IMG/VR virus record: IMGVR_UViG_3300044712_001084
Location: 10,006 to 74,005 of that record
DNA: 64,000 nucleotides
Reading direction: 5' to 3' (one strand)
DNA from: a virus
The notes under the pieces were generated by a model. It saw only the letters and a list, made by a program, of their open reading frames with translations. It was not told the DNA's origin and ran no database searches. The translations under genes were made by a program, and so were the position numbers. Positions 24,887 to 62,095 of the stretch are shown piece after piece. Each line of letters opens with the position of its first letter. Position 1 is the stretch's first letter.

Positions 24887-25149
24887 AATACTGGTTTCCT
24901 TTTCGTGATAAATATCCTGGGCGTGCGATTGGATTTGTAAACGGTACCCAGCCCAAAGTGGCACGATGGCATAGCCGTCTCCACGCACTTCATATTACCT
25001 AGCTGTGCCATGGCCTCACCTTTAGCTCTATCCTCGCCACGCACCAATAACCATTGCGGCTGATATCCCACACGCTCTATGAAAGACTTCTTGGCCGCTG
25101 CCAACGAGTCTGAAGTCAATCCATGTTTGTCATAGTACATTTTGAACAT
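24883..25149 (-). CDS. hypothetical protein
   Basis: lies between a promoter motif and the Nmad1-like gene; start uncertain. Confidence 0.55.
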   Translation of the reverse strand: MFKMYYDKHGLTSDSLAAAKKSFIERVGYQPQWLLVRGEDRAKGEAMAQLGNMKCVETAMPSCHFGLGTVYKSNRTPRIFITKRKPVL

Positions 25150-25392: not shown

Positions 25393-26280
25393 CTACCTAA
25401 GTTGCGGTGGCACGAATTTGGAACGCGGCTTGCCTTCGCCAGTCAGAACGCGCATATATTTATCCCATTCGCATAACGAGTGTTCCACGTCTCGCATTTC
25501 CAGTGGATCCATCCAGTAGGCTAGATACTCCGGTGACAGTTCTAGCAAGGTCCGCATTGCCATTATACACTCTGCACGGCTTGGAAAGTCTTTGGTACCA
25601 TGTCTAGCGTCTTGACCCATCAAGCGCACAATCCCTCGAATGGCTCCGGGACCAGGATTTGCCCAAGTCAATATATCGGCTGCGTTGCATAGATAACGCG
25701 TCCAGCGCAAATCGGTGATAACCTCGTAAGTGATAAAGTGGCCGTATCCAGGCACTTTACCGTCTAGCCGATTGAACGCCATTTCTAGCGTATCTCCTGG
25801 TTGCGGCTCTAGCTCTCTGCGTTTATTCCACAGAATAGCAAACGATATATTGAAAATCTGTTCAATCTTGGTTGGCGGCATGTAACCACTAGCGTCCCGA
25901 ATGTTACCGCACAGCATATGAGCGCCAGTGAAAATCTGACCGCCAGAGGCTCTGCGCTGAAACATGTGCTGCGTATAGCGGTCAGCGTCATAATCCTCGA
26001 TATAACCCAAGGCTTGCTGCGTCTCGATTAGGTTATACCGTCTATAGGCAGCGATGTTGAAAAACAGTTCAGGATGCGCTGCGTACGGCTCCCTAATGGC
26101 CTCCCGGCAATGAACTGTGCCACGGTCAAGCTCTCTGTATACATTAGTGAATTTATACGTCTGAAGTATCGGGTCAAGTGTCCATGGCCAAGGATGACCG
26201 TTCGCACGCCTGAGATACACGGCATGGCGTTCATTCATGAATTCAAAGAACTGCTGGATATTGTCACTAAGTAATTCCAT
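25393..26280 (-). CDS. aGPT-PPase clade-1-like base-hypermodification protein
   Basis: ERH..Y.RR..G..WPWT.DPILQTYKFTNVYRELDRGT; GPGAIRG; EHSLCEWDKY. Confidence 0.85.
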   Translation of the reverse strand: MELLSDNIQQFFEFMNERHAVYLRRANGHPWPWTLDPILQTYKFTNVYRELDRGTVHCREAIREPYAAHPELFFNIAAYRRYNLIETQQALGYIEDYDADRYTQHMFQRRASGGQIFTGAHMLCGNIRDASGYMPPTKIEQIFNISFAILWNKRRELEPQPGDTLEMAFNRLDGKVPGYGHFITYEVITDLRWTRYLCNAADILTWANPGPGAIRGIVRLMGQDARHGTKDFPSRAECIMAMRTLLELSPEYLAYWMDPLEMRDVEHSLCEWDKYMRVLTGEGKPRSKFVPPQLR

Positions 26281-26296
26281 AAAGCCCTCTCTAATG

Positions 26297-26331
26297 CTAG
26301 TGCCCCCAAGTATAGCTACTGGGGGCACTAG
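26297..26331 (-). terminator. hairpin terminator
   Basis: 12-bp stem CTAGTGCCCCCA / TGGGGGCACTAG. Confidence 0.65.
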
Positions 26332-31973: not shown

Positions 31974-32561
31974 CTAAACTTTAGGTACCGTTATACCACG
32001 CTGACCCTGGTATTTACCTTTCTTGTCTGCGTATGACTTGAGGCATACCTGGTCTGCTTCAAAAAATAACACCTGCGCGATGCCCTCGTTAGCGTATATC
32101 TTGGCCGGGAGTGGAGTTGTATTGCTAATCTCTATAGTGACGTGCCCTTGCCACTCCGGCTCAAATGCCGTGATATTGGCCACGATGCCGCACCTGGCGT
32201 AGGTGGATTTGCCGAGACATATTGTCAATACGCCACGAGGAATGCGGAAGTACTCCACGCTGCGCGCTAGAGCGAAAGAGTTTGGCGGTACGATCACGTA
32301 CCCATCATTGGCGCAGACTTCCTCTACAAACTTGATGTCAAAGTTCTTTGGATCTATGATCCCAGGCCAGATGTTGGAGAAGATTTTGAATTCCTCGGCA
32401 ACCCGCATATCGTACCCATACGATGACACGCCATAGCTGACGACCTTGGATGCGTGACGATACGGTGTAGCCTCTAAATGACTGACCTGGTCTGCTGAGA
32501 ACGGCTCTATCATGCCGCGTTCGGCTTGGTCAATAATCCATGCATCATTTTTCAATCCCAT
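31974..32561 (-). CDS. dcd: dCTP deaminase
   Basis: [35 protein letters not shown]. Confidence 0.95.
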
Positions 32562-32613
32562 CGGTAATTCTCCGAGTTTGCTAGAGAGTAATAAGTTGGT
32601 TATATTTACCAGC

Positions 32614-32631
32614 CTAGTATAATAAACTTGC
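32614..32631 (-). promoter_or_regulatory. conserved phage promoter-like motif, copy 7
   Basis: GCAAGTTTATTATACTAG upstream of dcd, overlapping a terminator stem. Confidence 0.65.
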
Positions 32632-32660
32632 GCACCCATCGATTTGACTGGGTGCGCAAG
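32627..32660 (-). terminator. terminator after the VWA gene
   Basis: 12-bp stem CTTGCGCACCCA / TGGGTGCGCAAG then TTT. Confidence 0.7.
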
Positions 32661-40824: not shown

Positions 40825-43674
40825 TCACTTGTCGCAAATGTTGTAGATGTATATACCGTGCACGGTCATACGTGTAACACCAGCACGCGTTGCTCCGGAT
40901 ATGCGTATCATATAATCAAATCCACAGTTATCCGAGTTGTTGCTATCCGGTGCCTTCATATACAACTTATCTGTAACTGGCTTTACATAGCACCATGAAT
41001 ACGAGGTCGTGCCATCACTATCACCAAAAGCCAGTAAAAAGTCTGACCATACCGCGCCACCTATAATCTCCACACCAAGAGGGCCAGTTGACACCCCATC
41101 TGTTATGGCAAAGTATAAATATTGCGGTCCTGAGCATCCAGGAAGCGCTGTCCAGTAACCGCTGTAGGACTCCACCTTATATACACTTCCAGGCACTAGA
41201 TTGTCAATCACCATATAAGGGTTATAGTAATTGACGTTCAGTGCAAAATCCGCTAGCACAGCGCCATCAGTGAACTCATATCCAGGTCTGGCCACGGCTT
41301 GGAACACTAGCGCATCGATGACCTGCGCCTCCGCCAAATTCAAGAACCTTACCACGCGATAGCCGCAACCGTTATTATCCGTGTACAGCGTCACCGTGCC
41401 TGTAGCCACGTTCACGCCATTACGCTGGCCATAAACGCGTATCCAATCCACAGTCTGCGTGGGTTCCCACACGCTGCTCAAGCGCTCGTAAAAGCACCCA
41501 TCAATGATAATATACGTCCATTGACCGTCCAGAACAGAGGATTTGCGTAGCACGACCTCGCATGGCACGGTAATCTGCGTAGAACCATAAGCACTCTCAG
41601 AGAATATATCGAAGCCGCCATGAGAGAATGGACCATTATAGCCTGGATTTATAGCCAAGCTGCACTCGTTGGGCCATACCGTGACTATATTATCAACCCA
41701 CCCATCACCTGGTATCTTGGGAGGCAATATTGATGGCGGCTTGAATGGATTAGGTGGAACCACTGGTAAAGTTGGAGGAAGAACTGGTGGATACGTGGGA
41801 TTGGTGGTATTATCGGGAATCTCCGGAACTATGACGGTCACGCCATCCACGCTATCCTCTATAACTGGCTCTAATCCGATTGTGGGCAAAGCCAAGCCAG
41901 CACTCATATCTAATCCGCTATCAACCGTGCGTATCAGATAATCGCCAACCAATCCAACACCTCTAGCAAAATAAGACCCAGGAATATTCAGAGTGATAAA
42001 CTGCTGGGGCACCACGTCCACCGGATAATTACCTGCCAGACCCAGCGACACTTCTTTCACAGTGGATTGTAATATGGCATAGAGCCGTCCAGATATGAAA
42101 TTCAGCTGCTCTTGGCTCTCTAATACCTGGCGCTCCACAGACGCGTGTGAAGATCCAACGGCATCTGGTAAAGTGCCTGGAGCCAATGACATTATAGGCA
42201 AGTATTTATCCGTGGCATCATCCCAATACACGCCAGACACCGTAATGGATGCCGTGTCATTATCCTCGTTTCTGGAGAATTCCACGCCAGAGTCTAGCCG
42301 TCTATCGGTATCTTCCATTTCAAATAGAGCCAAGCTATCTATGCGCCGCGCATCTGATAATGTATTGTAATCCTCGGTGACATAAACCTGGCCACCTTTG
42401 TTACAGCATACATGGGCAAATATACCGTATTGGCGCGCAAAATTATCCGGCATAGAGTACAGAGTACCAGTTTCCAGGTCATCGCAAGCTGGTAAGCGTA
42501 AGGTATTATCAGTGGGTAGAAATACATCAGCGATATCCATCAACGTGGAATGCCACTGCCAGAAATAATGAAGCACGCCAGACACGGTCAGAGGCTCTTT
42601 GTACTGATACCAAGTAGTGGGGTCATCCGCTACTTCCTCAACGCTCATGGAATACATATAAAACGAGTCCAGTATGCCGTCCACAGTGACCAATGACAAA
42701 CTAGCCGTATTGTTGGCATCGTCTCTAGAGGATTTATCAGAGCGTATATACCCAGCAAATTTTATATTGCCGCACGCGTCCATGTAATAGGTATCACCGT
42801 CAAATGTTTCCTCAGTCCATAAGATTATCATGGAGTTGTCTGGTATAACTGACGTAGAAGCATTAGCGCCATGTAGCTGTATAGAGGCTTGCCAGCCGCC
42901 ATCATTCCAACTGCCAGCTGGCTTGGACTCTAGTTCGAAGTCCAGTATGGGCGCATGGGTACCAGTCGGCTCGTGGATACGAATAGGTCTGCGCGTGGTG
43001 CGCGTTTTATCATTCGAGTCTGTAACGGTCAGACTCAGCCAATATAAACCCGGCTCTGTAAACGTGATCAGAGTTTGAGCTATATTAGGATTAGTTATAG
43101 TACCACCAGTGCACTCCCAGTAATATCCTGTAATCGTGGCTCCATGAGCTATGGTATAGCTAGCCAACGCGTTCAGCGCCATAGATAGCTGCGTACTTCG
43201 CAGCATACCCACCTTGGGACAACCCGCTATGGCAACTGGCGGTGGGTACAACGTCTGGTCCAAATACGCTATGTCACGGTCCTTGTAGAACGTATAAGCA
43301 TCAGAGTCATCTATCCAAGGATATATTGGCCACAATTCCCAATAACGATATATGCGCAAACCCATATCCAGACTCCAAACGATATTATTTTCATCCAGAG
43401 TCAGTGTATGGTTATCTATAGAGCGCAATCTGCGCTTGGACACAATAGCGCCAGAAGCTATGTCATAGACCTCTATAGTATTGCCTGGCCTGGCATCCGT
43501 TATAGAGCCTGACAAATCGCTAACTGTTATGACGCGTGCGCCACGCTCTGGAACGTATAACCCAGTTACATGGCCTGTATAAATTTCCACTGGGGTGATA
43601 GCCGTCATATACAGCTTGACCTTGTGTGGATGCTTACCACGCAAACGCGATAATTGTTGGGCAGTTAGACTCAT
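40825..43674 (-). CDS. large tail-tip/hub protein with PKD-like domain
   Basis: ITFTEPGLYWLSLTVTDS (PKD-like); Pro-rich linker; two genes after the tape measure. Confidence 0.65.
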   Translation of the reverse strand: MSLTAQQLSRLRGKHPHKVKLYMTAITPVEIYTGHVTGLYVPERGARVITVSDLSGSITDARPGNTIEVYDIASGAIVSKRRLRSIDNHTLTLDENNIVWSLDMGLRIYRYWELWPIYPWIDDSDAYTFYKDRDIAYLDQTLYPPPVAIAGCPKVGMLRSTQLSMALNALASYTIAHGATITGYYWECTGGTITNPNIAQTLITFTEPGLYWLSLTVTDSNDKTRTTRRPIRIHEPTGTHAPILDFELESKPAGSWNDGGWQASIQLHGANASTSVIPDNSMIILWTEETFDGDTYYMDACGNIKFAGYIRSDKSSRDDANNTASLSLVTVDGILDSFYMYSMSVEEVADDPTTWYQYKEPLTVSGVLHYFWQWHSTLMDIADVFLPTDNTLRLPACDDLETGTLYSMPDNFARQYGIFAHVCCNKGGQVYVTEDYNTLSDARRIDSLALFEMEDTDRRLDSGVEFSRNEDNDTASITVSGVYWDDATDKYLPIMSLAPGTLPDAVGSSHASVERQVLESQEQLNFISGRLYAILQSTVKEVSLGLAGNYPVDVVPQQFITLNIPGSYFARGVGLVGDYLIRTVDSGLDMSAGLALPTIGLEPVIEDSVDGVTVIVPEIPDNTTNPTYPPVLPPTLPVVPPNPFKPPSILPPKIPGDGWVDNIVTVWPNECSLAINPGYNGPFSHGGFDIFSESAYGSTQITVPCEVVLRKSSVLDGQWTYIIIDGCFYERLSSVWEPTQTVDWIRVYGQRNGVNVATGTVTLYTDNNGCGYRVVRFLNLAEAQVIDALVFQAVARPGYEFTDGAVLADFALNVNYYNPYMVIDNLVPGSVYKVESYSGYWTALPGCSGPQYLYFAITDGVSTGPLGVEIIGGAVWSDFLLAFGDSDGTTSYSWCYVKPVTDKLYMKAPDSNNSDNCGFDYMIRISGATRAGVTRMTVHGIYIYNICDK

Positions 43675-44111
43675 GATGAAGGATATACCTGGAGATTGAT
43701 AAATCGCAATTGAACCGTCTGCACCACGTAAGGTGACTTGGCCACAGGCATGCCCTCTGGACCGTGAAGCAAGGGCTTCCACATAACGCAACTATAGGTG
43801 GCAAAGGCATTGCGCGGCAGCGCGTTGGTACCGTCTCGCAAATCGGTATAGATATACACGCTGGCTGATTCTCCACCGTCCAGGTAGGCTAGTAAATTGG
43901 ACAAACGCGCCAAACTTATCATGTCCCATACCCAAAACGCGGTGGCATAGCCGTCTCCAACGCGGCTGTAATCAGCCCGCATGTAGAATGCGCTAGCTGG
44001 CTGGAATATAACCTGATCTGGTACAGCTACACCTAGATCACGCAAACGCGCCATTGACCCAGCACTTCTTCCTATCTTATAATCGGTATCAAGCACGTAT
44101 CGATTTGCCAT
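43671..44111 (-). CDS. distal tail protein (putative)
   Basis: ~146 aa directly after the tape measure. Confidence 0.55.
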   Translation of the reverse strand: MANRYVLDTDYKIGRSAGSMARLRDLGVAVPDQVIFQPASAFYMRADYSRVGDGYATAFWVWDMISLARLSNLLAYLDGGESASVYIYTDLRDGTNALPRNAFATYSCVMWKPLLHGPEGMPVAKSPYVVQTVQLRFINLQVYPSS

Positions 44112-47507: not shown

Positions 47508-49001
47508 TTAGATCAAACCGACTACCCTGGAGTTGGTGCGCGTAAGGAAGCCATAAGAGCCTTGCGGAGCACCACTCACCCACACCGTATTGTCATCCAC
47601 CAGGTACATGGAGCTCAAGCCAGAGTTGGCAGGAATGTTGAGGTTCCATAACCGGAATGATGCGCCACCATCGATGGACCGCAACACCTTGCCGCCAGCA
47701 GCCGTGGTCACAGCCACGTAAATGTTGGAGTCACCGGAGTTGACAATCTTTACCACAGCGGTGGGCACGACACCCTGCAGCGGCAGAGCATCCCACTCAC
47801 TGTCGCGCACAGATCCAAATACCTGACCAGCGTTATCGCCAACGAACACCGTACCATCCGGAGTGACGCATACGCAAGTCAAGTCTTCGCTGATAGTGCC
47901 TGGGCCTGTCAGAGCCGTCCAGCTTGTACCACCATCCTCGGATTTGACAATCAGATTGGAATTACCCACCGCATACACGGTGCCATCTGACAAACCAGCA
48001 ATGGCGTTGATATCCACCGCGCCAGCGCTGTAGGCAGCCGTCCAGCTAGCGCCACCGTCAATGGATTTATAGACATAGCCATCATCCGTGCTGGCATAAA
48101 CGTGCGCCCAGTCGATGAACAGCAAATCCTTGATATACTGGCCATCAACCGCGCCAACGTCCACCTTCACCCAAGTTGCCTGGCCCATGGACGTAATATC
48201 AGCATAAGCGATTTGCGCAGGGTCAGAGGGACGCGTGGTACCGTTGGACACGATAACGCGGTGACTATCTCTACGACCAACGACCACTATGGCGCTGATT
48301 GTCATGGAGGCATCGAATGGCGTGGTAGAGGTCTGCGTCCATGTCTCACCGCTATCATCCGTGTACCATACCTGGGCGATGTTACCAGCAGAGCCACCCA
48401 GCAAGCCTGAGCACAGATAGCCGTTCTCACCCACATCTTCCTGGGTGCGGAAGTCGGTCTGGCACTCGCCATTCATGAACGCGATGCCAGTAATAGCCTC
48501 TGTCTCAGCAATCGTGCGCGCTGATAAGAACCTGGTTAGCATGTCGTAAATGGCCATGGGCTCTTCCGACACGAAGGGTGTCTGGACACCCACAGACGCG
48601 TTATCACCCTCAATCTTGGACAAACGATCTACGCCCAGGTCACCACGCCGCGCACGCTCAAAGTGCACCACGACCTCGGAGGTGTACTGATTATCGGCTC
48701 TGTCGCACGCTCCCAGATGACCCTGGATATTGACAATGCGGTTCTTGAGGCCCATCATATAGTTCTGCGTGCGCTTCATGCGCGTCTCCAGCGTAAATGA
48801 GGGCAACGCTGGCTCACCAGTCACGATATCCGATATCACCGACATACCGCGCTGGGCAGGGTCCGGCTCACGAACAGCGTTCAGAGCACCCACCGGGTCA
48901 GTGATGTTTGTCAGGCCATAGGGCAGAAGCAGCTCAAACGGCTGGAACTTTCTGAGCTGGATCCATACACGGCCATCCCCAACTTTATAACTTGTTGCCA
49001 T
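47508..49001 (-). CDS. major tail protein fused to a BNR/Asp-box beta-propeller
   Basis: position; AGGAGG SD; own terminator; Asp-boxes TDDSGETW, SIDGGASW, SEDGGTSW, SIDGGASF. Confidence 0.65.
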   Translation of the reverse strand: MATSYKVGDGRVWIQLRKFQPFELLLPYGLTNITDPVGALNAVREPDPAQRGMSVISDIVTGEPALPSFTLETRMKRTQNYMMGLKNRIVNIQGHLGACDRADNQYTSEVVVHFERARRGDLGVDRLSKIEGDNASVGVQTPFVSEEPMAIYDMLTRFLSARTIAETEAITGIAFMNGECQTDFRTQEDVGENGYLCSGLLGGSAGNIAQVWYTDDSGETWTQTSTTPFDASMTISAIVVVGRRDSHRVIVSNGTTRPSDPAQIAYADITSMGQATWVKVDVGAVDGQYIKDLLFIDWAHVYASTDDGYVYKSIDGGASWTAAYSAGAVDINAIAGLSDGTVYAVGNSNLIVKSEDGGTSWTALTGPGTISEDLTCVCVTPDGTVFVGDNAGQVFGSVRDSEWDALPLQGVVPTAVVKIVNSGDSNIYVAVTTAAGGKVLRSIDGGASFRLWNLNIPANSGLSSMYLVDDNTVWVSGAPQGSYGFLTRTNSRVVGLI

Positions 49002-50609: not shown

Positions 50610-50924
50610 CTATGTAAACCGATAGAACAAACCAATGAACGCCACGCACCATAGCCATATATAAAATACTGACCACCATACCAGGCCACCTAGCGCCACA
50701 AACGCCAGAGCGATGACGGCAGATACCCACGTACCCAGGCACCAATGACAATCGAATAGCTTGGCGAAGAAGTTCACTGGTATATACTCGGCATCGTATC
50801 TGCATAGCATCATGCGCAAACGCCCAAAGATATCCCACGGTCCTTCCAAATCCTTGAGCATAACCAGCATCGTAAATGACACTGGAGCGCATACTAGACA
50901 AGCCAACGCGATATTGGCAATCAT
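50610..50924 (-). CDS. DUF1360-like membrane protein
   Basis: GPWDIFGRLR...LFDCHWCLGTWVS. Confidence 0.65.
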   Translation of the reverse strand: MIANIALACLVCAPVSFTMLVMLKDLEGPWDIFGRLRMMLCRYDAEYIPVNFFAKLFDCHWCLGTWVSAVIALAFVALGGLVWWSVFYIWLWCVAFIGLFYRFT

Positions 50925-52147
50925 CTGGTCTTGCCTTTCAGCCAGTTCACGACCTTGGCGCGATTGCGGCCACGCAACTCATTACGCAGCAGTAATCTAG
51001 CGATGTCTGGAGTGAGATTATCCAGCATCATAATCTGGTCTACAGACATGGTGGCAATATCGGGCACGTCATCTTCAACTGGCTTGCGTACCACCTCTCG
51101 TACCACGGCTGTGCGAGTGACCGCTTCCTCGACAACTTGCGGTGGAGGCTCAACCACTACAATAGGCTCTGGCGTGGGAGCGCTGGCTGACCGCACGACT
51201 CGCACAAAATACGTAGGCTTGGGTTCGTTGATCTGTCTAGCGTCAGATGGATCTACGTACAGATAATCCCCATAAGTCACCTTATGGGCCATGCCAGTCG
51301 TAATGCCATTGTAATAATGGCGGCCACGACCTTTACCACCCACGTACTGAACCAGCACCTTACCATCAGGCATGGTCAACGCCATAGAATTTACATCCAC
51401 AGTCGTTGGAATGGGCTGATTAGCCGCTACCAGCGCAGCCGCTGCGCGTCTTTTTCCACTGCACGAAGGACAAGCCATGTCGATATCTCCTATCAATTGA
51501 AGTACACGCCGCGCATATTGCGCAGAACGTTGCTTATAACTTTTGGTGCGCTGGTGCTCGTGCATGCGATATTCCACCAGAGGATGTGGGCAGCGCACCG
51601 CGCAATAGCGTAAAAACAATCTAGCGTTATATTCACCATCTTCGTAAAAGTCCAAATCCTCTCGATAGCCACCCACAGCATTGAATTGAGTTTTGCTGTA
51701 CAGCACATTTACGCTAGAGAAACCAACGTGCTTATATACGAGAGAACAATCAAAATCCAGTAAATGATAATGCTCAGTCACCTCTGCGCCAAACTTAGCT
51801 ACATCTGGATATACTGGAACACCTGTCCAATAGGTTAGTAAAGTGCTGATTGCCTCTGGCTTCAACCTATCATCGCAATCCAAGGGCAACACTAACGAGG
51901 TCTTGGCCACGCTTATGGCACGATTGCGGGCACTAGCCACGCCCACGTGATTGCCGTAAATTATAGAGCCGTCTAGATTATATTTACTGACGACCTTGCG
52001 TGGAGACAACGGTGATCCATCATCATATAGCGCTACAGAACAACCTTGCGTAGTAGCGCTAGCTAGACATTCATCTAACCACTCCATAGATTGCGCGTGA
52101 CTGCAATATACTGGAATGATAATCGTCACATCTTCAGGCTTATTCAT
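50921..52147 (-). CDS. GT2 glycosyltransferase with C-terminal extension
   Basis: IIIPVY, DDGS, GVASARN, LDCDD, EDGE. Confidence 0.85.
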   Translation of the reverse strand: MNKPEDVTIIIPVYCSHAQSMEWLDECLASATTQGCSVALYDDGSPLSPRKVVSKYNLDGSIIYGNHVGVASARNRAISVAKTSLVLPLDCDDRLKPEAISTLLTYWTGVPVYPDVAKFGAEVTEHYHLLDFDCSLVYKHVGFSSVNVLYSKTQFNAVGGYREDLDFYEDGEYNARLFLRYCAVRCPHPLVEYRMHEHQRTKSYKQRSAQYARRVLQLIGDIDMACPSCSGKRRAAAALVAANQPIPTTVDVNSMALTMPDGKVLVQYVGGKGRGRHYYNGITTGMAHKVTYGDYLYVDPSDARQINEPKPTYFVRVVRSASAPTPEPIVVVEPPPQVVEEAVTRTAVVREVVRKPVEDDVPDIATMSVDQIMMLDNLTPDIARLLLRNELRGRNRAKVVNWLKGKTR

Positions 52148-53832
52148 TTATCCTCGCCAAGCATGTGACGTAATTCCTTTACACGCTGGTCAAATGAACA
52201 ATTAGCCAAGACAAAATCCTGACCTCGTTTTGCTATGGCTTGGCGTTCCACGTCTCTAGCTAACCAATGCCGAATGAGGTCCGGCAACTCAGCCGTCTCT
52301 TTATAAGTGACGTAGTGCTCACCCTCTTTCATACCCAGCATGTACTCTATCTTAGGAAACCATTGCTGTAACGTGAAGCAACCCGCTGCCATGGATTGGA
52401 ATATGCGATTGGATACAAAATTTGTAGAGGGACGACCATCAGATATGGCAATCTTAGCTGCCTTATACAGTCTGCAGCCAGCATCATAATCGTATAAATT
52501 GCGGCCATTAGACGGTATACTGGAAGGCCATGATCCATAAATACCCACGTTCACGCCGCGCATAGAGCGTAAGGTACGACCTAATTCCACCCTGAATGGA
52601 TAGTGGCCATTACCAAGAAACAGTACGTCATGCCTGGGTGTTTTATTGATAGGCTCTGCGTTCGACACCTCGTAACCTATTTGCCAGTAGGCCCAAGGTA
52701 TATTGGCCACGTTATAATCTGTAGCCACGTCCACCGTGACAAACGTGGCCAAATCGAAGCGCTTCATCATTTCCATATACGGCTTGGCCAGAAAATTTTG
52801 TGGAAAATAATCCCCATTCCAGTTCACTAGCTTAGCGTGCTTGGGGCACACCTCTCGTAATAAATGAACCGTCTCACGACCGTATAACGAGGTGTCATGG
52901 ATCTGCGTCAATACCAGGTCAGGCTGCCAACCGCTAGCCGCGTCCAGTAAACCGTCTGGGTCAGCTAAGTAATCGAATTCATAAACATGATAATAACGGC
53001 TCAGCGCTTCGCGCAAACCACGCTTGGTTACGCGCTGTATGGCACTCCACTGCTCGTATATGGGAGCATATAATAAACGAGGTTTGTGGATACGAGGTTC
53101 ATCCACTATAGGCTTGGGTGCTACGTTAGGACCCAATAAACCATCTCTGGTCCACCTTTCTCGCCACGCTGTACTATCTGGGTGGCCAGTGGAAGGATGA
53201 TAATCCACAGCACCCATATTGATCTTACGCAACTCATCAGCCGCTACAAAATCTTGGATACACGCGCACGGAACTGGTTGGATCTTATAACCTAGCTCGT
53301 ATACACGGCAACTCAATTCGTTATCACCCGCATAGGTGTGGTATAAATCACCCCACCAACCCACGTAATCACCTAGCCAACGAGGCACTATGCATACCTG
53401 GCCATAAGGTCCATGGGATTGCTTACCGTCCACGACAATCGGCATATGCTCTACGTGCCACTCTTTTCCACCTCTATCCTGATAAAAGCATCCAATGCCA
53501 ACGTCTGGATTATCTTCCATGAACACGAAGGCATTGCGCAAGGTATCACCCACGAAGGCAATGTCATCGTTGGCGATAATTACATACTGACCTCTAGCCT
53601 CTTCAAAACCTGCTTGGAATGCCTTTACCGCGCCAACCAGTTTACCCTGCTCTATCAAGCGAATATCGGATTGCCGTTTACACCAGTCAATCGTGCCATC
53701 CTTGCTGCCACCGTCCACCAGCACTATCTCATACGGTAAACCAACGCCAATAGAGGCTCGCACGCTGTATACCATATTTTTCAGATATCCCAGCCGATTA
53801 TAAGTGCCTGACACGATTGATAATTGCTTCAT
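52144..53832 (-). CDS. bifunctional glycosyltransferase (GT2 + GT-B/CgeB-like)
   Basis: VDGGSKDGT, NDD; C-terminal SNRIFQSMAAG...IAKRG. Confidence 0.85.
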   Translation of the reverse strand: MKQLSIVSGTYNRLGYLKNMVYSVRASIGVGLPYEIVLVDGGSKDGTIDWCKRQSDIRLIEQGKLVGAVKAFQAGFEEARGQYVIIANDDIAFVGDTLRNAFVFMEDNPDVGIGCFYQDRGGKEWHVEHMPIVVDGKQSHGPYGQVCIVPRWLGDYVGWWGDLYHTYAGDNELSCRVYELGYKIQPVPCACIQDFVAADELRKINMGAVDYHPSTGHPDSTAWRERWTRDGLLGPNVAPKPIVDEPRIHKPRLLYAPIYEQWSAIQRVTKRGLREALSRYYHVYEFDYLADPDGLLDAASGWQPDLVLTQIHDTSLYGRETVHLLREVCPKHAKLVNWNGDYFPQNFLAKPYMEMMKRFDLATFVTVDVATDYNVANIPWAYWQIGYEVSNAEPINKTPRHDVLFLGNGHYPFRVELGRTLRSMRGVNVGIYGSWPSSIPSNGRNLYDYDAGCRLYKAAKIAISDGRPSTNFVSNRIFQSMAAGCFTLQQWFPKIEYMLGMKEGEHYVTYKETAELPDLIRHWLARDVERQAIAKRGQDFVLANCSFDQRVKELRHMLGEDK

Positions 53833-54455
53833 CTGATAACCCTCTTGAGTAATTTCCTATCACCCACGGCTTCCAAAAATTTTACCAGCATAGAGGTCTT
53901 GGGCGTAGATTCGACATCTATCCAACGCGCATAATCACCATAGTACTGCCCATACCGCTCAACCATATCTATCTTGGAGCGCAGTAAATCCAGGTTCAAT
54001 GGCCTGGCACCCGGCTTGCGCGTGCCTCTGCCCTCGATGCGTTTCACGCAACCCTCTAGCGTTGCGCGCAATTGAATGATAATCGGCTGGATCAAGAACT
54101 CACGCTCCATCTTCAGCAAATGCTCATATATGGGTGTCTTTATAGCCGTAATAAGCATGCCTTCAAATACTATCCCATGCAACGTTGGATAATTGGTATA
54201 AGTCGATATTAGAGCCTGTTTGACGTCATCCAAGGTATTGAAATTGTCGCAACCTCCCATCTTTTTATCTGGAGGATATACGCCAATCGCAGCCCAGCCG
54301 ATATCAGAGCACACCGTAGCAATAGCTTGCGCTTTGCCGTTGGGCAATTCCCATTCCAAAATCTCTTGCTCAGCGCCAGATAACGCTAGTAAATCCTTGA
54401 CTAACGAGGTCTTGCCTGAGCCGTTTGCGCCACGTATCTGCACGATCTTTGTCAT
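53829..54455 (-). CDS. P-loop kinase, 5-hmdU DNA kinase-like
   Basis: IRGANGSGKTS, GGCD, VFEG, CVKRI..R; sits in the AADT cluster. Confidence 0.75.
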   Translation of the reverse strand: MTKIVQIRGANGSGKTSLVKDLLALSGAEQEILEWELPNGKAQAIATVCSDIGWAAIGVYPPDKKMGGCDNFNTLDDVKQALISTYTNYPTLHGIVFEGMLITAIKTPIYEHLLKMEREFLIQPIIIQLRATLEGCVKRIEGRGTRKPGARPLNLDLLRSKIDMVERYGQYYGDYARWIDVESTPKTSMLVKFLEAVGDRKLLKRVIR

Positions 54456-55073
54456 TTATGCCTCATACCATCCAGACTCTGGCGCAGTCAGCCACCGTTT
54501 GACCAAGCGCTCCATTTTATCCCAGGCTGCACGCTCGTAATCAATCTGAACCACTTTGCTTGGGATACCGGCAGTCTCGTAATATTTACTGACTGGGTTA
54601 GTATAGCGCAATCGGCATTCATAGCGCAATCGGTCCTCCGTCCAGTAGTCGGCTCTGAACGTCTTGTGCTTGATATTACACCGATCAATGAGGAACTGCT
54701 TCCCTACGGCTTCGGAGGCCACAGGGATGATCATTTTCAGGCCACCGCCAACCTGCGTGAACGTATCGACAAGTAATTGATGCATACCACCAAAATACCG
54801 TGCGCTATCTAACACCCACATCATATCACGATCACGAATCATGGATGGAATGTCAACCAGCTTAGCCTCTTGCTTACCTTTCCAACGAGGCACGTCATGG
54901 CACACTAGCCACTCGTTATCCGTTGGCTCATAATGATACGAGTCAGCTGTATCTGCAATAACGCAGGTCAATCCAGCGTTATTAGGTAAAGCCAACGTTG
55001 TCCATTCATCCATATGCTTCTGGACAAAAGTCGTTTTGCCTGTAGCGAACATTCCATATATGGCGATTAGCAT
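54456..55073 (-). CDS. second P-loop kinase
   Basis: IYGMFATGKTT. Confidence 0.7.
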   Translation of the reverse strand: MLIAIYGMFATGKTTFVQKHMDEWTTLALPNNAGLTCVIADTADSYHYEPTDNEWLVCHDVPRWKGKQEAKLVDIPSMIRDRDMMWVLDSARYFGGMHQLLVDTFTQVGGGLKMIIPVASEAVGKQFLIDRCNIKHKTFRADYWTEDRLRYECRLRYTNPVSKYYETAGIPSKVVQIDYERAAWDKMERLVKRWLTAPESGWYEA

Positions 55074-55075
55074 TG

Positions 55076-55912
55076 TCAAGCTCCGATATTCCAAAACACG
55101 ATTGGCGGCTTGAGGTCATGAACGTTGCGCGCTAGCCACGTAAATGCCTTGGCATCGTAGTACTCGTTGCATGGGAACGGTATCCACTCGTTGGCCACTT
55201 TATCCTTATATTCGTAATTCTCATCCACTAGCTGGACTTGAGCACCCACCAACCAGTTAGACAAGCGCTGAACGTCTTTGTATATCTGCTCGTGGCTACG
55301 CGTGTAACCAAGATGTAACACCAGTTTACCTCGATAGCTTAGCTGCATCAAGCCCTTATAAACGGCTGCGCCCAGAGTGCCAGAGGATATCGACACGACC
55401 CAAGTGCCACCACGCGTCAAGTGTTTGGGCGTGTAGCTAGTCAATTCCTCCACCGTGGCATCGATAGACTCAACCAATTTCAGTCCATTAGGCATCATGA
55501 TACTATCCGCACCGTGACGCTCACGCAAGATGCGCTTGGCCTGGTTGTATAGCACTGCGCTCATACCAGCCTTCATGGGATACAAGGCTGCGCCAAACGA
55601 TTGGCACATTAGCTGATTCTTGCGCAATCCCACGTCACTCTTTAGCACTGGATAAAAGTCCACGCATGGCAATCCTAGCTCTTTGCACACATACGATACA
55701 CCCCAGCCAGCCTTGGAATGTTGCGTATCCATAACACCGATCACGACTGGGCCGCATTCCTCTTTTACAGAGGCTAGATATCTAGCCACGCCACGTATTT
55801 TTGAAAATCCTGGCCCAGGCTCTGGACTGGACAAATCCTCTCGCTTGACGTGAACCGGGCAACCATCCACGTCATACAATTCCCAAGGTGTGTTATCGCA
55901 CGTTAGCGGCAT
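55076..55912 (-). CDS. PLP-dependent enzyme (fold type II)
   Basis: VKREDL...SKIRG, SISSGT, YDAK, FWNIG. Confidence 0.8.
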   Translation of the reverse strand: MPLTCDNTPWELYDVDGCPVHVKREDLSSPEPGPGFSKIRGVARYLASVKEECGPVVIGVMDTQHSKAGWGVSYVCKELGLPCVDFYPVLKSDVGLRKNQLMCQSFGAALYPMKAGMSAVLYNQAKRILRERHGADSIMMPNGLKLVESIDATVEELTSYTPKHLTRGGTWVVSISSGTLGAAVYKGLMQLSYRGKLVLHLGYTRSHEQIYKDVQRLSNWLVGAQVQLVDENYEYKDKVANEWIPFPCNEYYDAKAFTWLARNVHDLKPPIVFWNIGA

Positions 55913-57312
55913 TATATACCTGTTACATCGTATCCCAAGCTGGTCCAGTACTCGATATCCGTCATAAAGTCCGGATTCCCAAAATGATAATCTTGTATGC
56001 GCCCAACCTGGTCGGGCATGAGGCATGAGTCCACGTTGTACCAATTCGTATCATCACCCTCTAGCTGAATGCTTTTCAACTGCTTGGACTCTAGAGCCGT
56101 GGCCTGTAATAAGACCTCGTTATTACATGCCTTGGTTCCAAAATCTGCGCAGTACAGGCAGCCTTTACGATAGCAACCAGGCAATGGCTGGAATGGCTGC
56201 CCAGGCTCTTCACGGAAGTGAACTGGTACGCCACGACCATGGCATTGATCCGAGGTCGTGAAATAGGGTGCCAGGTTAGCGCCAGCCTTGCCGTTGTCAT
56301 AATACTCGTAACAAGTGGACATCGTGATGCCCGCTGCACGCGTGCGCTCTAATAAGGCATTGAGCCAGTCCACGCGCAAATCTTGCTGGATAGTGTACAC
56401 GCCGCCAATCGTTTGGTTGAATAAGGACTCGAAAGTGTCCACGTTCGGCAGCTTAGCCAAGCGCTCCAGCAATAACTTCCGATTGTTGAATACCTGCTCA
56501 GCGAATTTGAAGATTATATGCTTCAATCCAGCCTGGGCCGCCATGTCCACGAGGTCCAAAAGCTCTTTCAGAGTGACAATACCCGGCAGCACCGGATTGC
56601 ACTGGAATGACGTGTAGATGCCCTTGGCGCTCAAATCGCTGACAGCCTTTAGCACCTCGTCAATGGAGAATGAACCTGGAGACAGCTTACGATACGTGGA
56701 ATTATTCGAGGTGTTTACACTCCACTGCATGTAGCTGTATGGATTGGCCTGGAGCGCATCGACTGCCCATGACGGAGGAATTCTGCGCGATAGATAGAAG
56801 ATAGGCAGGTTATGATCCACGAACACCTGCGACAAACGCTGCGTCACGTTGTATTTATCCTCTAGTAATTGAAACGGCTCTGTGAAGCTAGACATGTACG
56901 CTGCGCCGCTAACAGTCATCTTTTCCACCTGCTTACGCATAAAGTCAGGGTAATCAGGATTGACGGTGGAAATGCCCGTAGCGCGATAGCCTCTGGTGCC
57001 ATGATCTACATAGCAGAATTTACAACCGATATGGCAGAACCCGCCATACGGTGTCGTCAAGAGGGCTTCGGTATAGCATGGACGTGGGCGCACCCGGCTG
57101 GGTTCGTGTTTGCTCTTATACCAACCGCGCACCGCTGGATTAGAGGAATTGACAATGTGGCGCATAGGTCTGGTGTATACTTTGAATGGCCTGAGTTGGC
57201 CTCCCTTGACCATAGCCAGCGGAATCATCTTGAACTCGCCGTTCTCATCCACTCCAGCGTCCACAGCCTGTTCCAACTCAAATTGCTTTTGCTTCTTAGG
57301 TTCGTCAGTCAT
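55912..57312 (-). CDS. radical SAM enzyme
   Basis: CHIGCKFCY (CxxxCxxC); additional C-terminal Cys cluster. Confidence 0.88.
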   Translation of the reverse strand: MTDEPKKQKQFELEQAVDAGVDENGEFKMIPLAMVKGGQLRPFKVYTRPMRHIVNSSNPAVRGWYKSKHEPSRVRPRPCYTEALLTTPYGGFCHIGCKFCYVDHGTRGYRATGISTVNPDYPDFMRKQVEKMTVSGAAYMSSFTEPFQLLEDKYNVTQRLSQVFVDHNLPIFYLSRRIPPSWAVDALQANPYSYMQWSVNTSNNSTYRKLSPGSFSIDEVLKAVSDLSAKGIYTSFQCNPVLPGIVTLKELLDLVDMAAQAGLKHIIFKFAEQVFNNRKLLLERLAKLPNVDTFESLFNQTIGGVYTIQQDLRVDWLNALLERTRAAGITMSTCYEYYDNGKAGANLAPYFTTSDQCHGRGVPVHFREEPGQPFQPLPGCYRKGCLYCADFGTKACNNEVLLQATALESKQLKSIQLEGDDTNWYNVDSCLMPDQVGRIQDYHFGNPDFMTDIEYWTSLGYDVTGI

Positions 57313-58111
57313 TATTCCTCCACAACTCATAATAAGGTGTAAGCCAATATTCCAGGCAACTAGCTAAGTCACCGCAACCGTGTAAACCATGCATAATTTC
57401 CAACGTATCGTTGCCTGGAGGATAGTGACCATTGACATGCGACTTATACTTGCACGCAATCGTTTCAAGCTCTTGTATATTTACCTTGCGGTCAGCGTAT
57501 GGCGGAGCCACATAATTATCAAAATCGCTCTGTAACACGGCAAACGTCTCGTGAAGTTCATCTCTCGTTATCGGATGGTGCTGATCACCAAAACGAATAA
57601 GGGCTGCGCCCTTTACTGGGTCACGATATACGCCAATCTCTGCGTTGGAAAAGTCCACAGAACGTTGCAGAACACGCTCTGTCATATCCGCTATTTTCCA
57701 CGCTATCCATGGCCCAAATCCTCGGAATGACTGAGCGGCAGCCGATATCGACTGGAAATCATTGCCATTCGTCATAGCGTCCACCACTTTTTCAGGACTA
57801 CCATAGTTATGCAGGCCTGAAACGGTATCAATAAAGGCTTGGCCACGCATATGTCTGCGCTCGTGACCTCTGGGTGCGTGGGCCATATCCTCAGCATATA
57901 GAGCCTTATAAAAGCTATTCCCAGAACGCTCTGCGCAACGACACGCCACGCCAGCGCTGTAAAATATCCAGTAAGCCAGCATAAAGCGCTTCATAGTGGA
58001 CTCAGGCCAATCAGAGTTGGCTAGAATTACGTATAATGGATCCAAATCATAGGTATCCAATAATTGCGCACCAAAAGATTGATAATCCACCACCTCATAG
58101 GAATAGCCCAT
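57305..58111 (-). CDS. amino acid:DNA transferase (aGPT-PPase clade-2-like)
   Basis: DLDPLY, YWIFY, RGHERRHMRG, GFGPWIAWKIADM, QELETIACKYKSH. Confidence 0.85.
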   Translation of the reverse strand: MGYSYEVVDYQSFGAQLLDTYDLDPLYVILANSDWPESTMKRFMLAYWIFYSAGVACRCAERSGNSFYKALYAEDMAHAPRGHERRHMRGQAFIDTVSGLHNYGSPEKVVDAMTNGNDFQSISAAAQSFRGFGPWIAWKIADMTERVLQRSVDFSNAEIGVYRDPVKGAALIRFGDQHHPITRDELHETFAVLQSDFDNYVAPPYADRKVNIQELETIACKYKSHVNGHYPPGNDTLEIMHGLHGCGDLASCLEYWLTPYYELWRNND

Positions 58112-58121
58112 AAATACCTCA

Positions 58122-58140
58122 CTTATATTACTAAACTTGT
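58122..58140 (-). promoter_or_regulatory. conserved phage promoter-like motif, copy 9
   Basis: ACAAGTTTAGTAATATAAG between the capsid terminator and the AADT SD. Confidence 0.7.
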
Positions 58141-58148
58141 GTATAAAC

Positions 58149-58180
58149 GACTAACAGCGCCATAATTAGCGCTGTTAGTC
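58149..58180 (-). terminator. terminator after the major capsid gene
   Basis: 12-bp stem GACTAACAGCGC / GCGCTGTTAGTC. Confidence 0.7.
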
Positions 58181-58219
58181 CTTCGGGAGAAGAGGTGCAA
58201 AACCGAACTGGCTGGAGGA

Positions 58220-59659
58220 TTACACGTCAGGCGCTGCGAGGTGCAGCGGTGCCCCACCGGGCATATACTCCGGCTGGAACGGATCACCAGTGAGAGGTTG
58301 GCGCATGCGGGTCACGCACACGTCCTGGATGCGGGCCTGGGCCCATGGCGCAGAAAGGTAAATTTCAGGGCTGGTGCCCATCTGGAACTTGACGCACCAG
58401 TTACCCTCTTTACCTTTCATGGCGAAGCGGCCACCCTGTTCAACGCGAACAGAGAAGCCGGGCATGGCCTTCTGGATGCGGCTCTGGTACAGACTCAAAT
58501 CGAGGTACTCACCATAGAGCACGTCCATAGAGCCAATGCGCCGGGTCAGCAGATAGATATCCGTGCACCAGGTCGTAGCGGCATTCTTGGAAATGTCCAT
58601 GGCGTCATCCACGATGATGGGCAATCTGCGGCCAGACTTCAGCTGGATGTAGCCAACAGCCGTGGTGCCATCGTACAGAGGGCCAGCGTTGAGGCTGCGC
58701 CGTGATTCACGCGCCTGGGCACGCAGAGCCTGGTCTGAAATGTTGGTGGCATCCGTCACACCGCAAATGGTGTAGCAGGAATAGGCATCCAGAAGCTTGG
58801 TGGCCATGAACCGACTGGTGAGCAGAATCATATCCGCTTCGGCAATCGGGCCAATAGCGCTGGCACGCCACTCAATCTCAGTAACCAGTTCATCCAGATA
58901 ATCGAAGATGTTGCCGAGGTTATTCACCTCACCATCCAGATTATCGTGGGCCCAGTCGATGATCGAAGCGCCAATCTGCGGGCACGCTTCGCCATTATCA
59001 TTGAGATAGGTGGTGCGCACCAGACTTTCCAGGCCATCCATTTCATTGGCGTTGTTGTGGCTGCCGTGGATCTGACCACGCTGAATGTCCTGCTTCATGA
59101 CGTTCATGATGCCGTTCATCTGCCACTCAACGTCATCCATAATCTGAACACCGTTCAGCCGATAGCGCGGAGCCGTCTCGCAGCGCTCTTGCACGGTGGT
59201 GTGCGGGTCAAGCCCTTCACCAGCGCGATGATACCACGAGGTGTGGGTCAGTTCATAACCGCAAACAGCATATTCCCAGCCGTTGGGGTCAGCGCACGGA
59301 GCGCCAGCGCCAGAGGTAGGGCTGCCACCCACGGTGCCCTGCGGGCCATACCAGGGGATGAAATCAACGCGTCTGCGATAGAACTTGTTGGGCCGCCAGC
59401 CCAGCCAGTTCATCAGGCCAACCGTCTGGACCTGCAAACCGAAGATGTCTCCGGGTGAGCAAGGGTCAAAGATGGAATTGCGGCCATAAATCGAGGAAGT
59501 GCCCAGGGTGATGGAGGCTTCTTTGAAAGCCACTGCCTGGCCACGCGCTGAGCCCTGCTGGGCCTGAACAATCGCATTACCAATATAATTACCCAGGGTG
59601 GCCAGTTCCTTATTCCGGACGCCGCCAACCGTGCGGGTTCTACCATTCTTTACTTTCAC
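58220..59659 (-). CDS. major capsid protein
   Basis: follows protease-scaffold; strong codon bias; own terminator; IHGS....EMDGL HK97-fold-like segment. Confidence 0.8.
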   Translation of the reverse strand: MKVKNGRTRTVGGVRNKELATLGNYIGNAIVQAQQGSARGQAVAFKEASITLGTSSIYGRNSIFDPCSPGDIFGLQVQTVGLMNWLGWRPNKFYRRRVDFIPWYGPQGTVGGSPTSGAGAPCADPNGWEYAVCGYELTHTSWYHRAGEGLDPHTTVQERCETAPRYRLNGVQIMDDVEWQMNGIMNVMKQDIQRGQIHGSHNNANEMDGLESLVRTTYLNDNGEACPQIGASIIDWAHDNLDGEVNNLGNIFDYLDELVTEIEWRASAIGPIAEADMILLTSRFMATKLLDAYSCYTICGVTDATNISDQALRAQARESRRSLNAGPLYDGTTAVGYIQLKSGRRLPIIVDDAMDISKNAATTWCTDIYLLTRRIGSMDVLYGEYLDLSLYQSRIQKAMPGFSVRVEQGGRFAMKGKEGNWCVKFQMGTSPEIYLSAPWAQARIQDVCVTRMRQPLTGDPFQPEYMPGGAPLHLAAPDV

Positions 59660-60898: not shown

Positions 60899-62095
60899 CT
60901 ACACCATACCGATAAACTGCGGCACATCCATATCCAGCGGCAGCTTGCGGAATTCCTCGTGACCTTGGCGGTCAGGACAATCTTCGCAATGCTCTGCGTG
61001 GGTCATATGCCATACAGCCTTTATCATCTTGAACTTGTCGTTGCGGCCAACCTCGGATAATTCCCAACGACACTTACAATTTACCAAGCACTCAGTGCTA
61101 CCGTCACCTGGTATCCAAGGCAAGGGTGGTATAGAGCCTTTCTTGCGCCGCGTACCGCCAGCGAACGGTCCTGCCTGCAGTAAGGCAGCCGTATAACGAG
61201 AGGCATTGCCATACATTCTAGCTCTGGCTTGTAGAGCCTCTAGCGACACGTCCTCACGATTAGTGGCTATATACTCGGCAAATCCGTGTAGATAACGATA
61301 CTGCGATTTGACCTCTGCGCCAATGCGTCCCCAATCGCTTTTTGATAGGTCTGCCCAAGAGCCTTTACCGATAGCGCCAGTTGCCGTGTGAAGGCTCTTT
61401 ATCATGCCCTTCATACCCTCTTCCCACTCACCCAAGGATATATCACCATTGTACAGCCGTTCTGTCAAGGCATCCGAGTCACCCTGGAATAGCGCAACCC
61501 GCTCAATCACTAGCGCTGACTTAGAATTGTCATCCATGAGTGGTACTTCTTTCTCCACCACGTCACCGGATAAAGGATAGTGACTAATTTCATCACCCCA
61601 AAATAGCGCTAACTCATTGAAGGTCTTGGGATACGTGACAGAACTGCTAGGTAACTCGATAGATAAATCATCGGTATAACCTAATGTCATATGCGGAGTG
61701 AAACCATGATTCTGAGTCAATTCCATAGCTAGCTCTGCACGTAAGGTCATTAGCAACGCTTGTCTGAAGGCTGGCAACGCTGCGCTGTCAAATAACGCCA
61801 CCACTGGAGAGGAATTATCATTATCAGACGTGGCTGCGAATAGTGCGAAGCCATTGAACTCACCGGATATACCAGCGTGCCTAGCGCCAAACGAGGTCAA
61901 TGCTTGTGACACGGCATCTTTATCTAATTGAGTGACGTCACCTAGATAAACCAAGGTAATGTGAGGATTAGCTGCCAACGCTTTACTAGCCACGTTAGCG
62001 CCCAACTCAGAACCATTCAAATCGAATGCCACAATAGCACTCGATTTGTAGGACTCTTTGACAATCGGGCTGCGCTGGACAAATCGCAGTTTCAT
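60899..62095 (-). CDS. 2H phosphoesterase fused to a MuF-like head morphogenesis domain
   Basis: HITLVY and HMTLGY (two HxT motifs); PGDGSTECLVNCKC and HCEDC. Confidence 0.75.
   Translation of the reverse strand: MKLRFVQRSPIVKESYKSSAIVAFDLNGSELGANVASKALAANPHITLVYLGDVTQLDKDAVSQALTSFGARHAGISGEFNGFALFAATSDNDNSSPVVALFDSAALPAFRQALLMTLRAELAMELTQNHGFTPHMTLGYTDDLSIELPSSSVTYPKTFNELALFWGDEISHYPLSGDVVEKEVPLMDDNSKSALVIERVALFQGDSDALTERLYNGDISLGEWEEGMKGMIKSLHTATGAIGKGSWADLSKSDWGRIGAEVKSQYRYLHGFAEYIATNREDVSLEALQARARMYGNASRYTAALLQAGPFAGGTRRKKGSIPPLPWIPGDGSTECLVNCKCRWELSEVGRNDKFKMIKAVWHMTHAEHCEDCPDRQGHEEFRKLPLDMDVPQFIGMV

Follow-up and report, generated by a model that had tools for sequence, protein, structure and literature searches.

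A predicted M6-type thymidine hypermodification cassette with an additional kinase-like protein in the virion module of an uncultured phage

Pseudomonas phage YuA (genus Yuavirus) is a close relative of Pseudomonas phage M6. A 5-hydroxymethyldeoxyuridine (5-hmdU) DNA kinase, a glycine:DNA transferase, a glycinyl-thymine isomerase, and a pyridoxal phosphate (PLP)-dependent decarboxylase of M6 have been demonstrated biochemically, and their joint product is 5-(2-aminoethyl)-2'-deoxyuridine (5-NedU; PMC8989533). The pathway corresponds to gp51–gp54 of M6 and gp10–gp13 of YuA (Lee et al. 2018 and 2021; PMC5889632, PMC8989533). Two kinases in one phage are on record as well, for Salmonella phage ViI (gp67 and gp243) and Bacillus phage SP10, where they are listed as 'Kinase' and 'Kinase2' (PMC5889632, Table 3); both ViI kinases phosphorylate 5-hmdU DNA in vitro (PMC8989533). 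Here we analyze a cassette of five abutting genes, encoding an amino-acid:DNA transferase (AADT), a radical SAM enzyme, a PLP enzyme, P-loop protein X, and a 5-hmdU DNA kinase (HMUDK), in 64,000 nucleotides of DNA from an uncultured phage. This stretch, referred to as the window, comprises bases 10006–74005 of the 74,005-bp IMG/VR virus record IMGVR_UViG_3300044712_001084, which has direct terminal repeats and is judged complete. The minus strand carries almost all genes of the window.

We consider it likely that the cassette is a post-replicative set of the M6/YuA type in which X serves as a second kinase, that it has been relocated to a slot among the virion genes, and that the pair of glycosyltransferase (GT) genes beside it is unrelated to the modified base. 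What was observed directly is the identity and homology of the genes, the conservation of catalytic residues, synteny, and the distribution of the genes.

Composition of the cassette

The cassette spans window positions 53829–58111 on the minus strand. In the order of transcription, its genes are as follows.

57305–58111, minus strand: AADT (aGPT-Pplase clade 2), predicted glycine:DNA transferase (PF18724, E 1.4e-20)
55912–57330, minus strand: radical SAM enzyme, counterpart of the M6 gp53 glycinyl-thymine isomerase (phrog_9252, E 7e-93)
55076–55912, minus strand: PLP-dependent enzyme (fold type II), counterpart of the M6 gp52 decarboxylase (PF00291, E 2.2e-9; phrog_7093, E 6.5e-67)
54456–55073, minus strand: P-loop protein X, 205 aa, kinase-like, predicted second DNA-base kinase (Walker A motif GMFATGKT)
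53829–54455, minus strand: HMUDK, 5-hmdU DNA kinase (PF18748, E 3.6e-7, 30.3 bits against a cut-off of 27 bits)

A sequence-only reading of the window had proposed a five-gene thymidine hypermodification operon of M6 type at this position, with a second, different P-loop kinase. The proposal is borne out: all five genes are found there on the minus strand, every M6/YuA component has a full-length counterpart, and X is present, kinase-like, and distinct in family from HMUDK.

The stop codon of the radical SAM gene overlaps the start codon of the PLP enzyme gene as TAATG at 55912, the PLP enzyme and X genes are separated by 2 nt, the stop codon TAA of X directly abuts the start codon ATG of HMUDK, and the stop codon of HMUDK overlaps the start codon of the GT gene that follows (GT562) as ATGA. 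Two start codons are corrected here. Alignments with YuA gp11 and with the counterpart in the closest relative (L003) place the start of the PLP enzyme at ATG 55912 (278 aa), not at TTG 56044; that of X is placed at ATG 55073, eight bases after GGAG.

The AADT is 40% identical to YuA gp10, the PLP enzyme is 44% identical to YuA gp11 and to its FP1 counterpart end to end, and the radical SAM enzyme is 39% identical to YuA gp12 over 431 residues (E 3e-101). HMUDK shares 27% identity with the YuA gp13 kinase and 29% with that of Bordetella phage FP1, and its tblastn matches include the ViI-type gp67 locus. On the radical SAM protein, the Pfam family Radical_SAM (PF04055) scores slightly below its cut-off (E 1.8e-6, 28.7 bits against 29.5). 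HMUDK also matches phrog_800, labeled 'terminase small subunit'. A small-terminase identity was considered for X on that account and is rejected; YuA gp13 and the kinase gene of Bordetella phage CN1 carry the same label, which is an annotation error for the kinase family.

Catalytic residues are conserved. Among solved transferases, the AADT matches PDB 25qc with E about 1e-50 (1.5e-50) and 8z2m, the PaMx11 enzyme deposited as a glycinyltransferase, with E 2e-47. In PaMx11 gp46, roles have been assigned to metal ligands, to a Cys and a Trp that clamp the base, and to pocket residues (PMC11472151). Alignment with the solved structures indicates that the AADT of the window retains the metal ligands Glu-Thr (E243/T244), the clamp residues C247 and W146, and the equivalents of K150 and R94/H95. 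The equivalents of pocket residues Y47, Y51, E92, D262, and E265 are conserved, and F173 is replaced by Tyr. We therefore classify the AADT, by sequence, as a clade-2 aGPT-Pplase of the glycine-transferring type, with glycine as the predicted donor. The motif CHIGCKFC (CxxxCxxC) of the radical SAM enzyme aligns with CTVGCAFC of YuA gp12, a second Cys cluster is conserved too, and the PLP enzyme retains the lysine motif SFSKIRG. Because of the homology to the YuA set and the residues kept in the AADT, radical SAM, and PLP enzymes, the cassette most likely encodes an M6-type pathway, with 5-NedU as the predicted product. In this sense it is an additional member of the already known M6/YuA pathway.

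The cassette differs from its YuA counterpart in gene order (AADT, radical SAM, PLP, X, and kinase in the window; AADT, PLP, radical SAM, kinase, and HMUDK_hel in YuA), in the extra P-loop protein X, and in its place: it lies in the virion module, about 28 kb from the genes for HMUDK_hel, DUF1599, and polymerase. The backbone of the window phage is unrelated to that of YuA/M6, and a nucleotide search with the cassette region gives no match among 50,697 phage records, cultured phages included. The window phage resembles M6/YuA in that it also encodes HMUDK_hel, a thymidylate synthase (TS)-like hydroxymethylase, and a family-A polymerase. These remote genes are as follows.

25393–26328, minus strand: HMUDK_hel (aGPT-Pplase clade 1), counterpart of YuA gp14 (37% identity; PF18723, E 3.9e-49)
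31974–32639, minus strand: dCTP deaminase-like enzyme, dUMP supply for the pre-replicative arm (PF22769, E 9.7e-32)
21618–24335, minus strand: fusion of uracil-DNA glycosylase (UDG), 3'-5' exonuclease, and family-A polymerase (PolA), 905 aa, assigned by domain order
24305–24988: DUF1599/Nmad1 gene, adjoining the polymerase fusion and HMUDK_hel genes
Genome positions 1158–2342, outside the window: TS-superfamily (hydroxymethylase-like) gene, 32% identical to the YuA gp17 and FP1 hydroxymethyltransferases

The TS-like enzyme scores far below the ThyA equivalog cut-offs, and, among solved structures, a CMP (pyrimidine) hydroxymethylase comes closest to it (5b6d, E 6e-15). It is predicted to be a dUMP hydroxymethylase and the source of 5-hmdU for the pathway. 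In total, the AADT, PLP enzyme, radical SAM enzyme, HMUDK, HMUDK_hel, and TS-like enzyme match YuA gp10, gp11, gp12, gp13, gp14, and gp17, respectively, at 27–44% identity, mostly end to end. The DUF1599/Nmad1 and HMUDK_hel genes precede the gene for the polymerase fusion, whose domain order fits the UDG-fused polymerases of phages with T-modified genomes (PMC13697223).

Protein X and its relatives

X has no family in the Pfam, PHROG, or NCBIfam libraries, tblastn against the 50,697 phage records finds no match to X in any cultured phage, and a word-seeded protein search retrieves X alone. An exhaustive HMMER search of 1.84 billion representative proteins yields 63 representatives of the X family, nearly all of about 200 aa. 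In an alignment of 45 members, residues G7, G12, K13, D41, and W144 are invariant, and K71, R131, E152, and R156 are nearly so.

The AlphaFold2 model of X has a predicted local distance difference test (pLDDT) score of 97. In Foldseek searches with X, P-loop kinases come out on top, namely O-phosphoseryl-tRNA(Sec) kinase (PSTK), archaeal adenylate kinases, and gluconokinase, with a probability of 1.00 to PSTK and adenylate kinases. The profile of the X family matches PSTK with E 2e-5, and the alignment with 3a4l sets D41 of X on D41 of PSTK and R131 on R120. With its Walker A motif, a conserved acidic residue after strand 2, a lid Arg, and a kinase-type fold, X has the features of a P-loop kinase, and the best reading is that it is an active one.

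PSTK and the KTI12 clade are the best profile and fold matches of X beyond the bare P-loop, and the Walker A motif, the Asp after strand 2, and the lid Arg align. PSTK phosphorylates a hydroxyl borne by a nucleic acid, to which the predicted reaction of X may be likened. Unlike PSTK, X has no tRNA-binding C-terminal domain, and the likeness, at E 2e-5 and a TM-score of about 0.5, is one of fold and motif, not of family membership. X and HMUDK align with a probability of 93% and E 2.5e-7 over 135 columns (hhalign), but none of 45 members of the X family matches PF18748 at E up to 0.1. Therefore, X does not belong to the HMUDK family and, judged by these comparisons, represents a distinct kinase-like family remotely related to it.

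Relatives of X occur at 14 further loci besides the window, among them loci retrieved with an alignment of 10 X sequences. At 13 of these, X adjoins hypermodification genes (radical SAM, PLP, DNA methylase, or HMUDK), and HMUDK follows X directly or one gene on at 7 of the 10 loci where the sequence beyond X is readable. The arrangements are as follows.

PLP enzyme, X, HMUDK: L004 (genome G002), L012, L017
Radical SAM or PLP enzyme directly upstream of X: L015, L016, L018, L019
X, DNA methylase, HMUDK: L014, L020 (in L016, X then methylase)
X, HMUDK: L021
X, X-paralogue: L022
X, HMUDK pair well away from the AADT, radical SAM, and PLP genes: genome G003
X without a readable neighbor: L013

The methylase is an N6/N4 DNA methyltransferase (PF01555, E about 1e-60) that comes after X in L014 (688–1449), L016 (1256–2047), and L020 (428–1204), standing between X and HMUDK in L014 and L020. 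In G003, the radical SAM gene (L005, 6600–9107, plus strand) is an 835-aa open reading frame with an intein (Intein_splicing, E 3.4e-12). A profile search of the YuA and FP1 genomes finds no X.

The most likely role of X is to phosphorylate 5-hmdU in DNA, as a second kinase beside HMUDK. In having two P-loop kinases tied to thymidine hypermodification, the window phage resembles ViI and SP10. However, searching the ViI genome with the X profile retrieves no kinase, the sole match being a spurious one to the gp44 clamp loader, and tblastn finds no relative in cultured phages. Therefore, X is of another family than the ViI kinases. Moreover, the two kinase genes of ViI lie scattered, whereas the genes for X and HMUDK are immediate neighbors.

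Alternatively, X could be a nucleotide kinase of the pre-replicative arm, converting 5-hmdUMP to 5-hmdUDP. This is unlikely in our judgment. The same step in phage SH-Ab 15599 is assigned to host dNMP/dNDP kinases (PMC13458397), so that a phage-encoded helper is conceivable, and the fold matches of X include adenylate, cytidylate, and deoxynucleoside kinases at the level of PSTK. However, X is always accompanied by post-replicative genes (radical SAM, PLP, DNA methylase, HMUDK), is never found beside a TS-like or dCTP deaminase gene, and moved to the virion module along with the cassette. In addition, an invariant Asp at the position of the PSTK Asp would suit a hydroxyl rather than a phosphate as the acceptor.

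It is quite unlikely that X adds a second phosphate to the monophosphorylated base 5-phosphomethyldeoxyuridine (5-PmdU), yielding the 5-pyrophosphoryl-oxymethyl group described for PhiW-14 in the 1980s, or that it feeds a branch from 5-hmdU to thymine. X and HMUDK are adjacent remote paralogues, older work points to a pyrophosphorylated intermediate, and hypermodifying phages turn part of their 5-hmdU to thymine (PMC8989533). In vitro, however, monophosphorylated 5-PmdU is competent for M6 gp51 and only the monophosphate is seen (PMC8989533), and in L003 the same cassette occurs without X. A second 5-hmdU DNA kinase remains our preferred reading of X.

The variable slot and the glycosyltransferase pair

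The cassette lies between a probable capsid gene and a pair of GT genes. The features that define the site are as follows.

58220–59659, minus strand: probable major capsid protein of 479 aa, which bounds the slot on its upstream side (by conservation and language-model neighbors)
About 58145–58184, minus strand: terminator-like hairpin with a 14-bp stem and a weak T run, after the stop codon of the capsid-like gene (by RNA folding)
58123–58139, minus strand: promoter-like motif CAAGTTTAGTAATATAA, after the hairpin and 12 nt upstream of the AADT start
52144–53832, minus strand: GT562, two-domain GT (GT2 and Glyco_trans_1_2; Pfam)
50921–52147, minus strand: GT408, GT2 glycosyltransferase and constant partner of GT562 (Pfam)

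The hairpin has a folding energy of -26.2 kcal/mol (z -7.07), and none of 200 shuffled sequences is equally stable. The motif CAAGTTTAGTAATATAA occurs nine times in the window, always on the minus strand, with 0.04 copies expected by chance. The eight other copies (CAAGTTTAKTA..., window 523–39475) precede replication and nucleotide-metabolism genes, and the motif looks like one promoter class for these genes. The genes with a copy upstream are those for a gp32-like single-stranded DNA-binding protein, the DUF1599-polymerase operon, the dCTP deaminase, a helicase, and three small genes near the start of the window.

A degenerate-pattern search based on a three-sequence GT562 alignment retrieves 31 viral loci, and GT562 alone retrieves none. 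About 29 related viral contigs share a capsid-like gene, a variable slot, GT562, and GT408 in the virion module. The usual order is portal-like, MuF-like, p423, the 479-aa gene, the variable stretch, GT562, GT408, p104, p342, p186, p497, p213, and p849, with GT408 after GT562 in nearly all contigs. In this set, only the window and L003 carry hypermodification genes in the variable stretch; the contents elsewhere include the following.

None, with GT562 directly after the capsid-like gene: L028, L032, L042
GIY-YIG/NUMOD3 homing endonuclease: L029, 3504–4364, plus strand
Rhamnosyl O-methyltransferase: L055
Further GT2 genes: L031
7-kb island: L009, 8175–15934, minus strand (genome G003)

The G003 island comprises an RmlD-like reductase, a rhamnosyl O-methyltransferase, a second methyltransferase, three further GTs, and an ADP-ribosyltransferase-exoenzyme-like gene. 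The homing endonuclease in L029 fits a site open to mobile insertions.

Equivalent hairpins follow the capsid-like gene in L003, L028, L029, L032, L042, and L055, and in all relatives examined, including ones without a cassette, a hairpin and a CAAGTT(T/A)..TA motif stand behind this gene. Therefore, the motif is an ancestral feature of the slot and was not brought in by the cassette. The sequence-only reading had given the operon a promoter copy of its own behind a capsid terminator and had placed it in the morphogenesis module, between capsid and neck genes. The location in the virion module behind a terminator-like hairpin and a promoter-like motif holds, but the motif is not the cassette's own, the capsid is a probable one, and no neck gene is demonstrable downstream.

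As for the capsid, the 479-aa gene is the best-conserved gene nearby and stands after a MuF-like gene and a 423-aa gene. Homologues 60–72% identical to its product occur in more than 100 metagenome clusters, none with a name, the 175 homologues retrieved are all unnamed, and its language-model neighbors include SU10_MCP clusters. The protein has no Pfam or PHROG match, one homologue reaches E 0.16 to SU10_MCP, phmmer and profile searches against PDB sequences find nothing, and the AlphaFold2 model has a pLDDT of 34. Downstream virion proteins (47508–49001 and 40825–43791, both minus strand) contain BNR/sialidase-like propeller repeats and a PKD domain, which suggests tail or host-recognition roles rather than neck roles. 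In the head module, the N-terminal part of the protein at 60899–62095 (minus strand) is a 2H phosphoesterase (LigT-like) domain (PF13563, E 1.1e-11).

The claim that coupling to two GTs points to a further-elaborated base does not survive the comparison with relatives: the GT562-GT408 pair is conserved in the virion module of the roughly 29 contigs, mostly without the cassette. We assign a low probability to a role of the GTs on DNA, in which they would add a sugar to residual 5-hmdU or to the aminoethyl group and, together with X, yield a base elaborated beyond 5-NedU. The start of GT562 overlaps the stop codon of HMUDK and no separate copy of the motif precedes GT562, so that co-transcription with the cassette is probable. 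However, the pair keeps its place whether the cassette is there or not, and the overlap is best read as a by-product of the insertion of the cassette directly before GT562. No AADT match is found in 20 of 23 GT-bearing records searched. Two close relatives, G006 and G022 (96% complete), have the GT pair and a TS-like gene and no AADT or HMUDK match, an arrangement that speaks for a GT acting on DNA. In contrast, G013 and G015 (complete) and G009 (89%) have the pair and no match to ThyA-like, ThyX, HMUDK, or AADT proteins; a search for Tet/JBP in the three is empty as well, with an uninformative control. In these three genomes, the GT pair is thus not seen to co-occur with a hydroxymethyl-pyrimidine DNA route. 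The G003 genome has the pair some 30 kb away from the AADT, radical SAM, and PLP genes and next to the RmlD-like and rhamnosyl O-methyltransferase genes, a kind typically involved in making glycans. Furthermore, GT562 resembles bacterial two-domain polysaccharide GTs and not known DNA glycosyltransferases.

The link between the cassette and the GTs is therefore most likely positional only. The pair belongs to the virion module and most likely glycosylates virion proteins or another non-DNA target. Virion glycosylation has a precedent in mycobacteriophages (Freeman et al. 2023, as cited in PMC11600133 and PMC12619734), where GT genes stand in tandem beside sugar O-methyltransferase genes; the comparison is an analogy, for the neighboring genes GT562 and GT408 only.

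Proposed pathway and implications

From these observations we infer the chemical steps, the final product, the substrate of X, and the target of the GTs. The TS-like hydroxymethylase and the dCTP deaminase would supply 5-hmdUTP, and the UDG-fused family-A polymerase would incorporate 5-hmdU into DNA. HMUDK, probably with the separately encoded HMUDK_hel, would then phosphorylate the 5-hydroxymethyl group in DNA, the AADT would replace the phosphate with glycine, the radical SAM enzyme would isomerize the N-alpha-glycinyl-thymidine, and the PLP enzyme would decarboxylate the isomerized product to 5-(2-aminoethyl)-2'-deoxyuridine. X may bring 5-hmdU into the pathway in more sequence contexts or in a larger proportion, a role that the two ViI kinases may likewise have.

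The cassette would once have stood in the replication module beside the DUF1599 and polymerase genes. It is still found beside DUF1599 and PolA in the relatives L004 and L012, and likewise in YuA. On the line leading to the window phage and L003, it would have moved to the variable cargo slot, directly before GT562. A move from the replication module to the slot is the simplest history because of the position in L004, L012, and YuA and the distribution of genes in the slot.

Several points weigh against this account of the pathway, of X, and of the GTs. The enzymes are only 27–44% identical to characterized ones, which leaves room for another amino-acid donor or another final product. The Foldseek TM-scores of X are just about 0.5, at the same level for nucleotide kinases and PSTK, and Asp41 and Arg120 of PSTK, to which D41 and R131 are compared, are residues that we take to be catalytic. 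The closest relative, L003 (genome G001), has the same cassette at the same site without X, and purified M6 gp54 works without a partner in vitro (PMC8989533). The label of the 479-aa gene as major capsid protein is only a probable one. The gene pattern of G006 and G022 would also suit a GT acting on 5-hmdU, and missing hypermodification genes in incomplete viral records are weak evidence. In addition, when queried with PF18748, the profile search of viral records failed to retrieve HMUDK from the window itself; weak matches can thus be lost at the first filter, and negatives from this search are therefore taken with care.

It is very doubtful that X and HMUDK split the fate of 5-hmdU, with one marking it for amino-acid transfer and the other for reduction to thymine, a pyrophosphate intermediate, or hand-over to the GTs, so that two thymine derivatives, perhaps including an undescribed sugar-bearing base, would be distributed in the phage DNA according to sequence.

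With the M6-type pathway and a second 5-hmdU kinase as the preferred reading, two-kinase phages are already known, and what is new is a second kinase of the X family in M6-type clusters. The additions are thus a conserved, unnamed second kinase family and the transfer of a cassette to a variable slot of the virion module. The GT pair adds a caution, namely that reading-frame overlap with neighbors alone does not show a shared pathway. Thymidine hypermodifications shield phage DNA from restriction enzymes and provide enzymes for DNA labeling, and the cassette is a complete though distant version of the M6 pathway, found in a phage group that is abundant and has no cultured member. It behaves as a portable unit that landed in a variable slot downstream of a resident promoter-like motif. 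Should X prove to be a second kinase for 5-hmdU DNA and to prefer other sequences than HMUDK, this would go some way to explain how phages set the fraction and pattern of modified thymines, and X would be a new tool enzyme.

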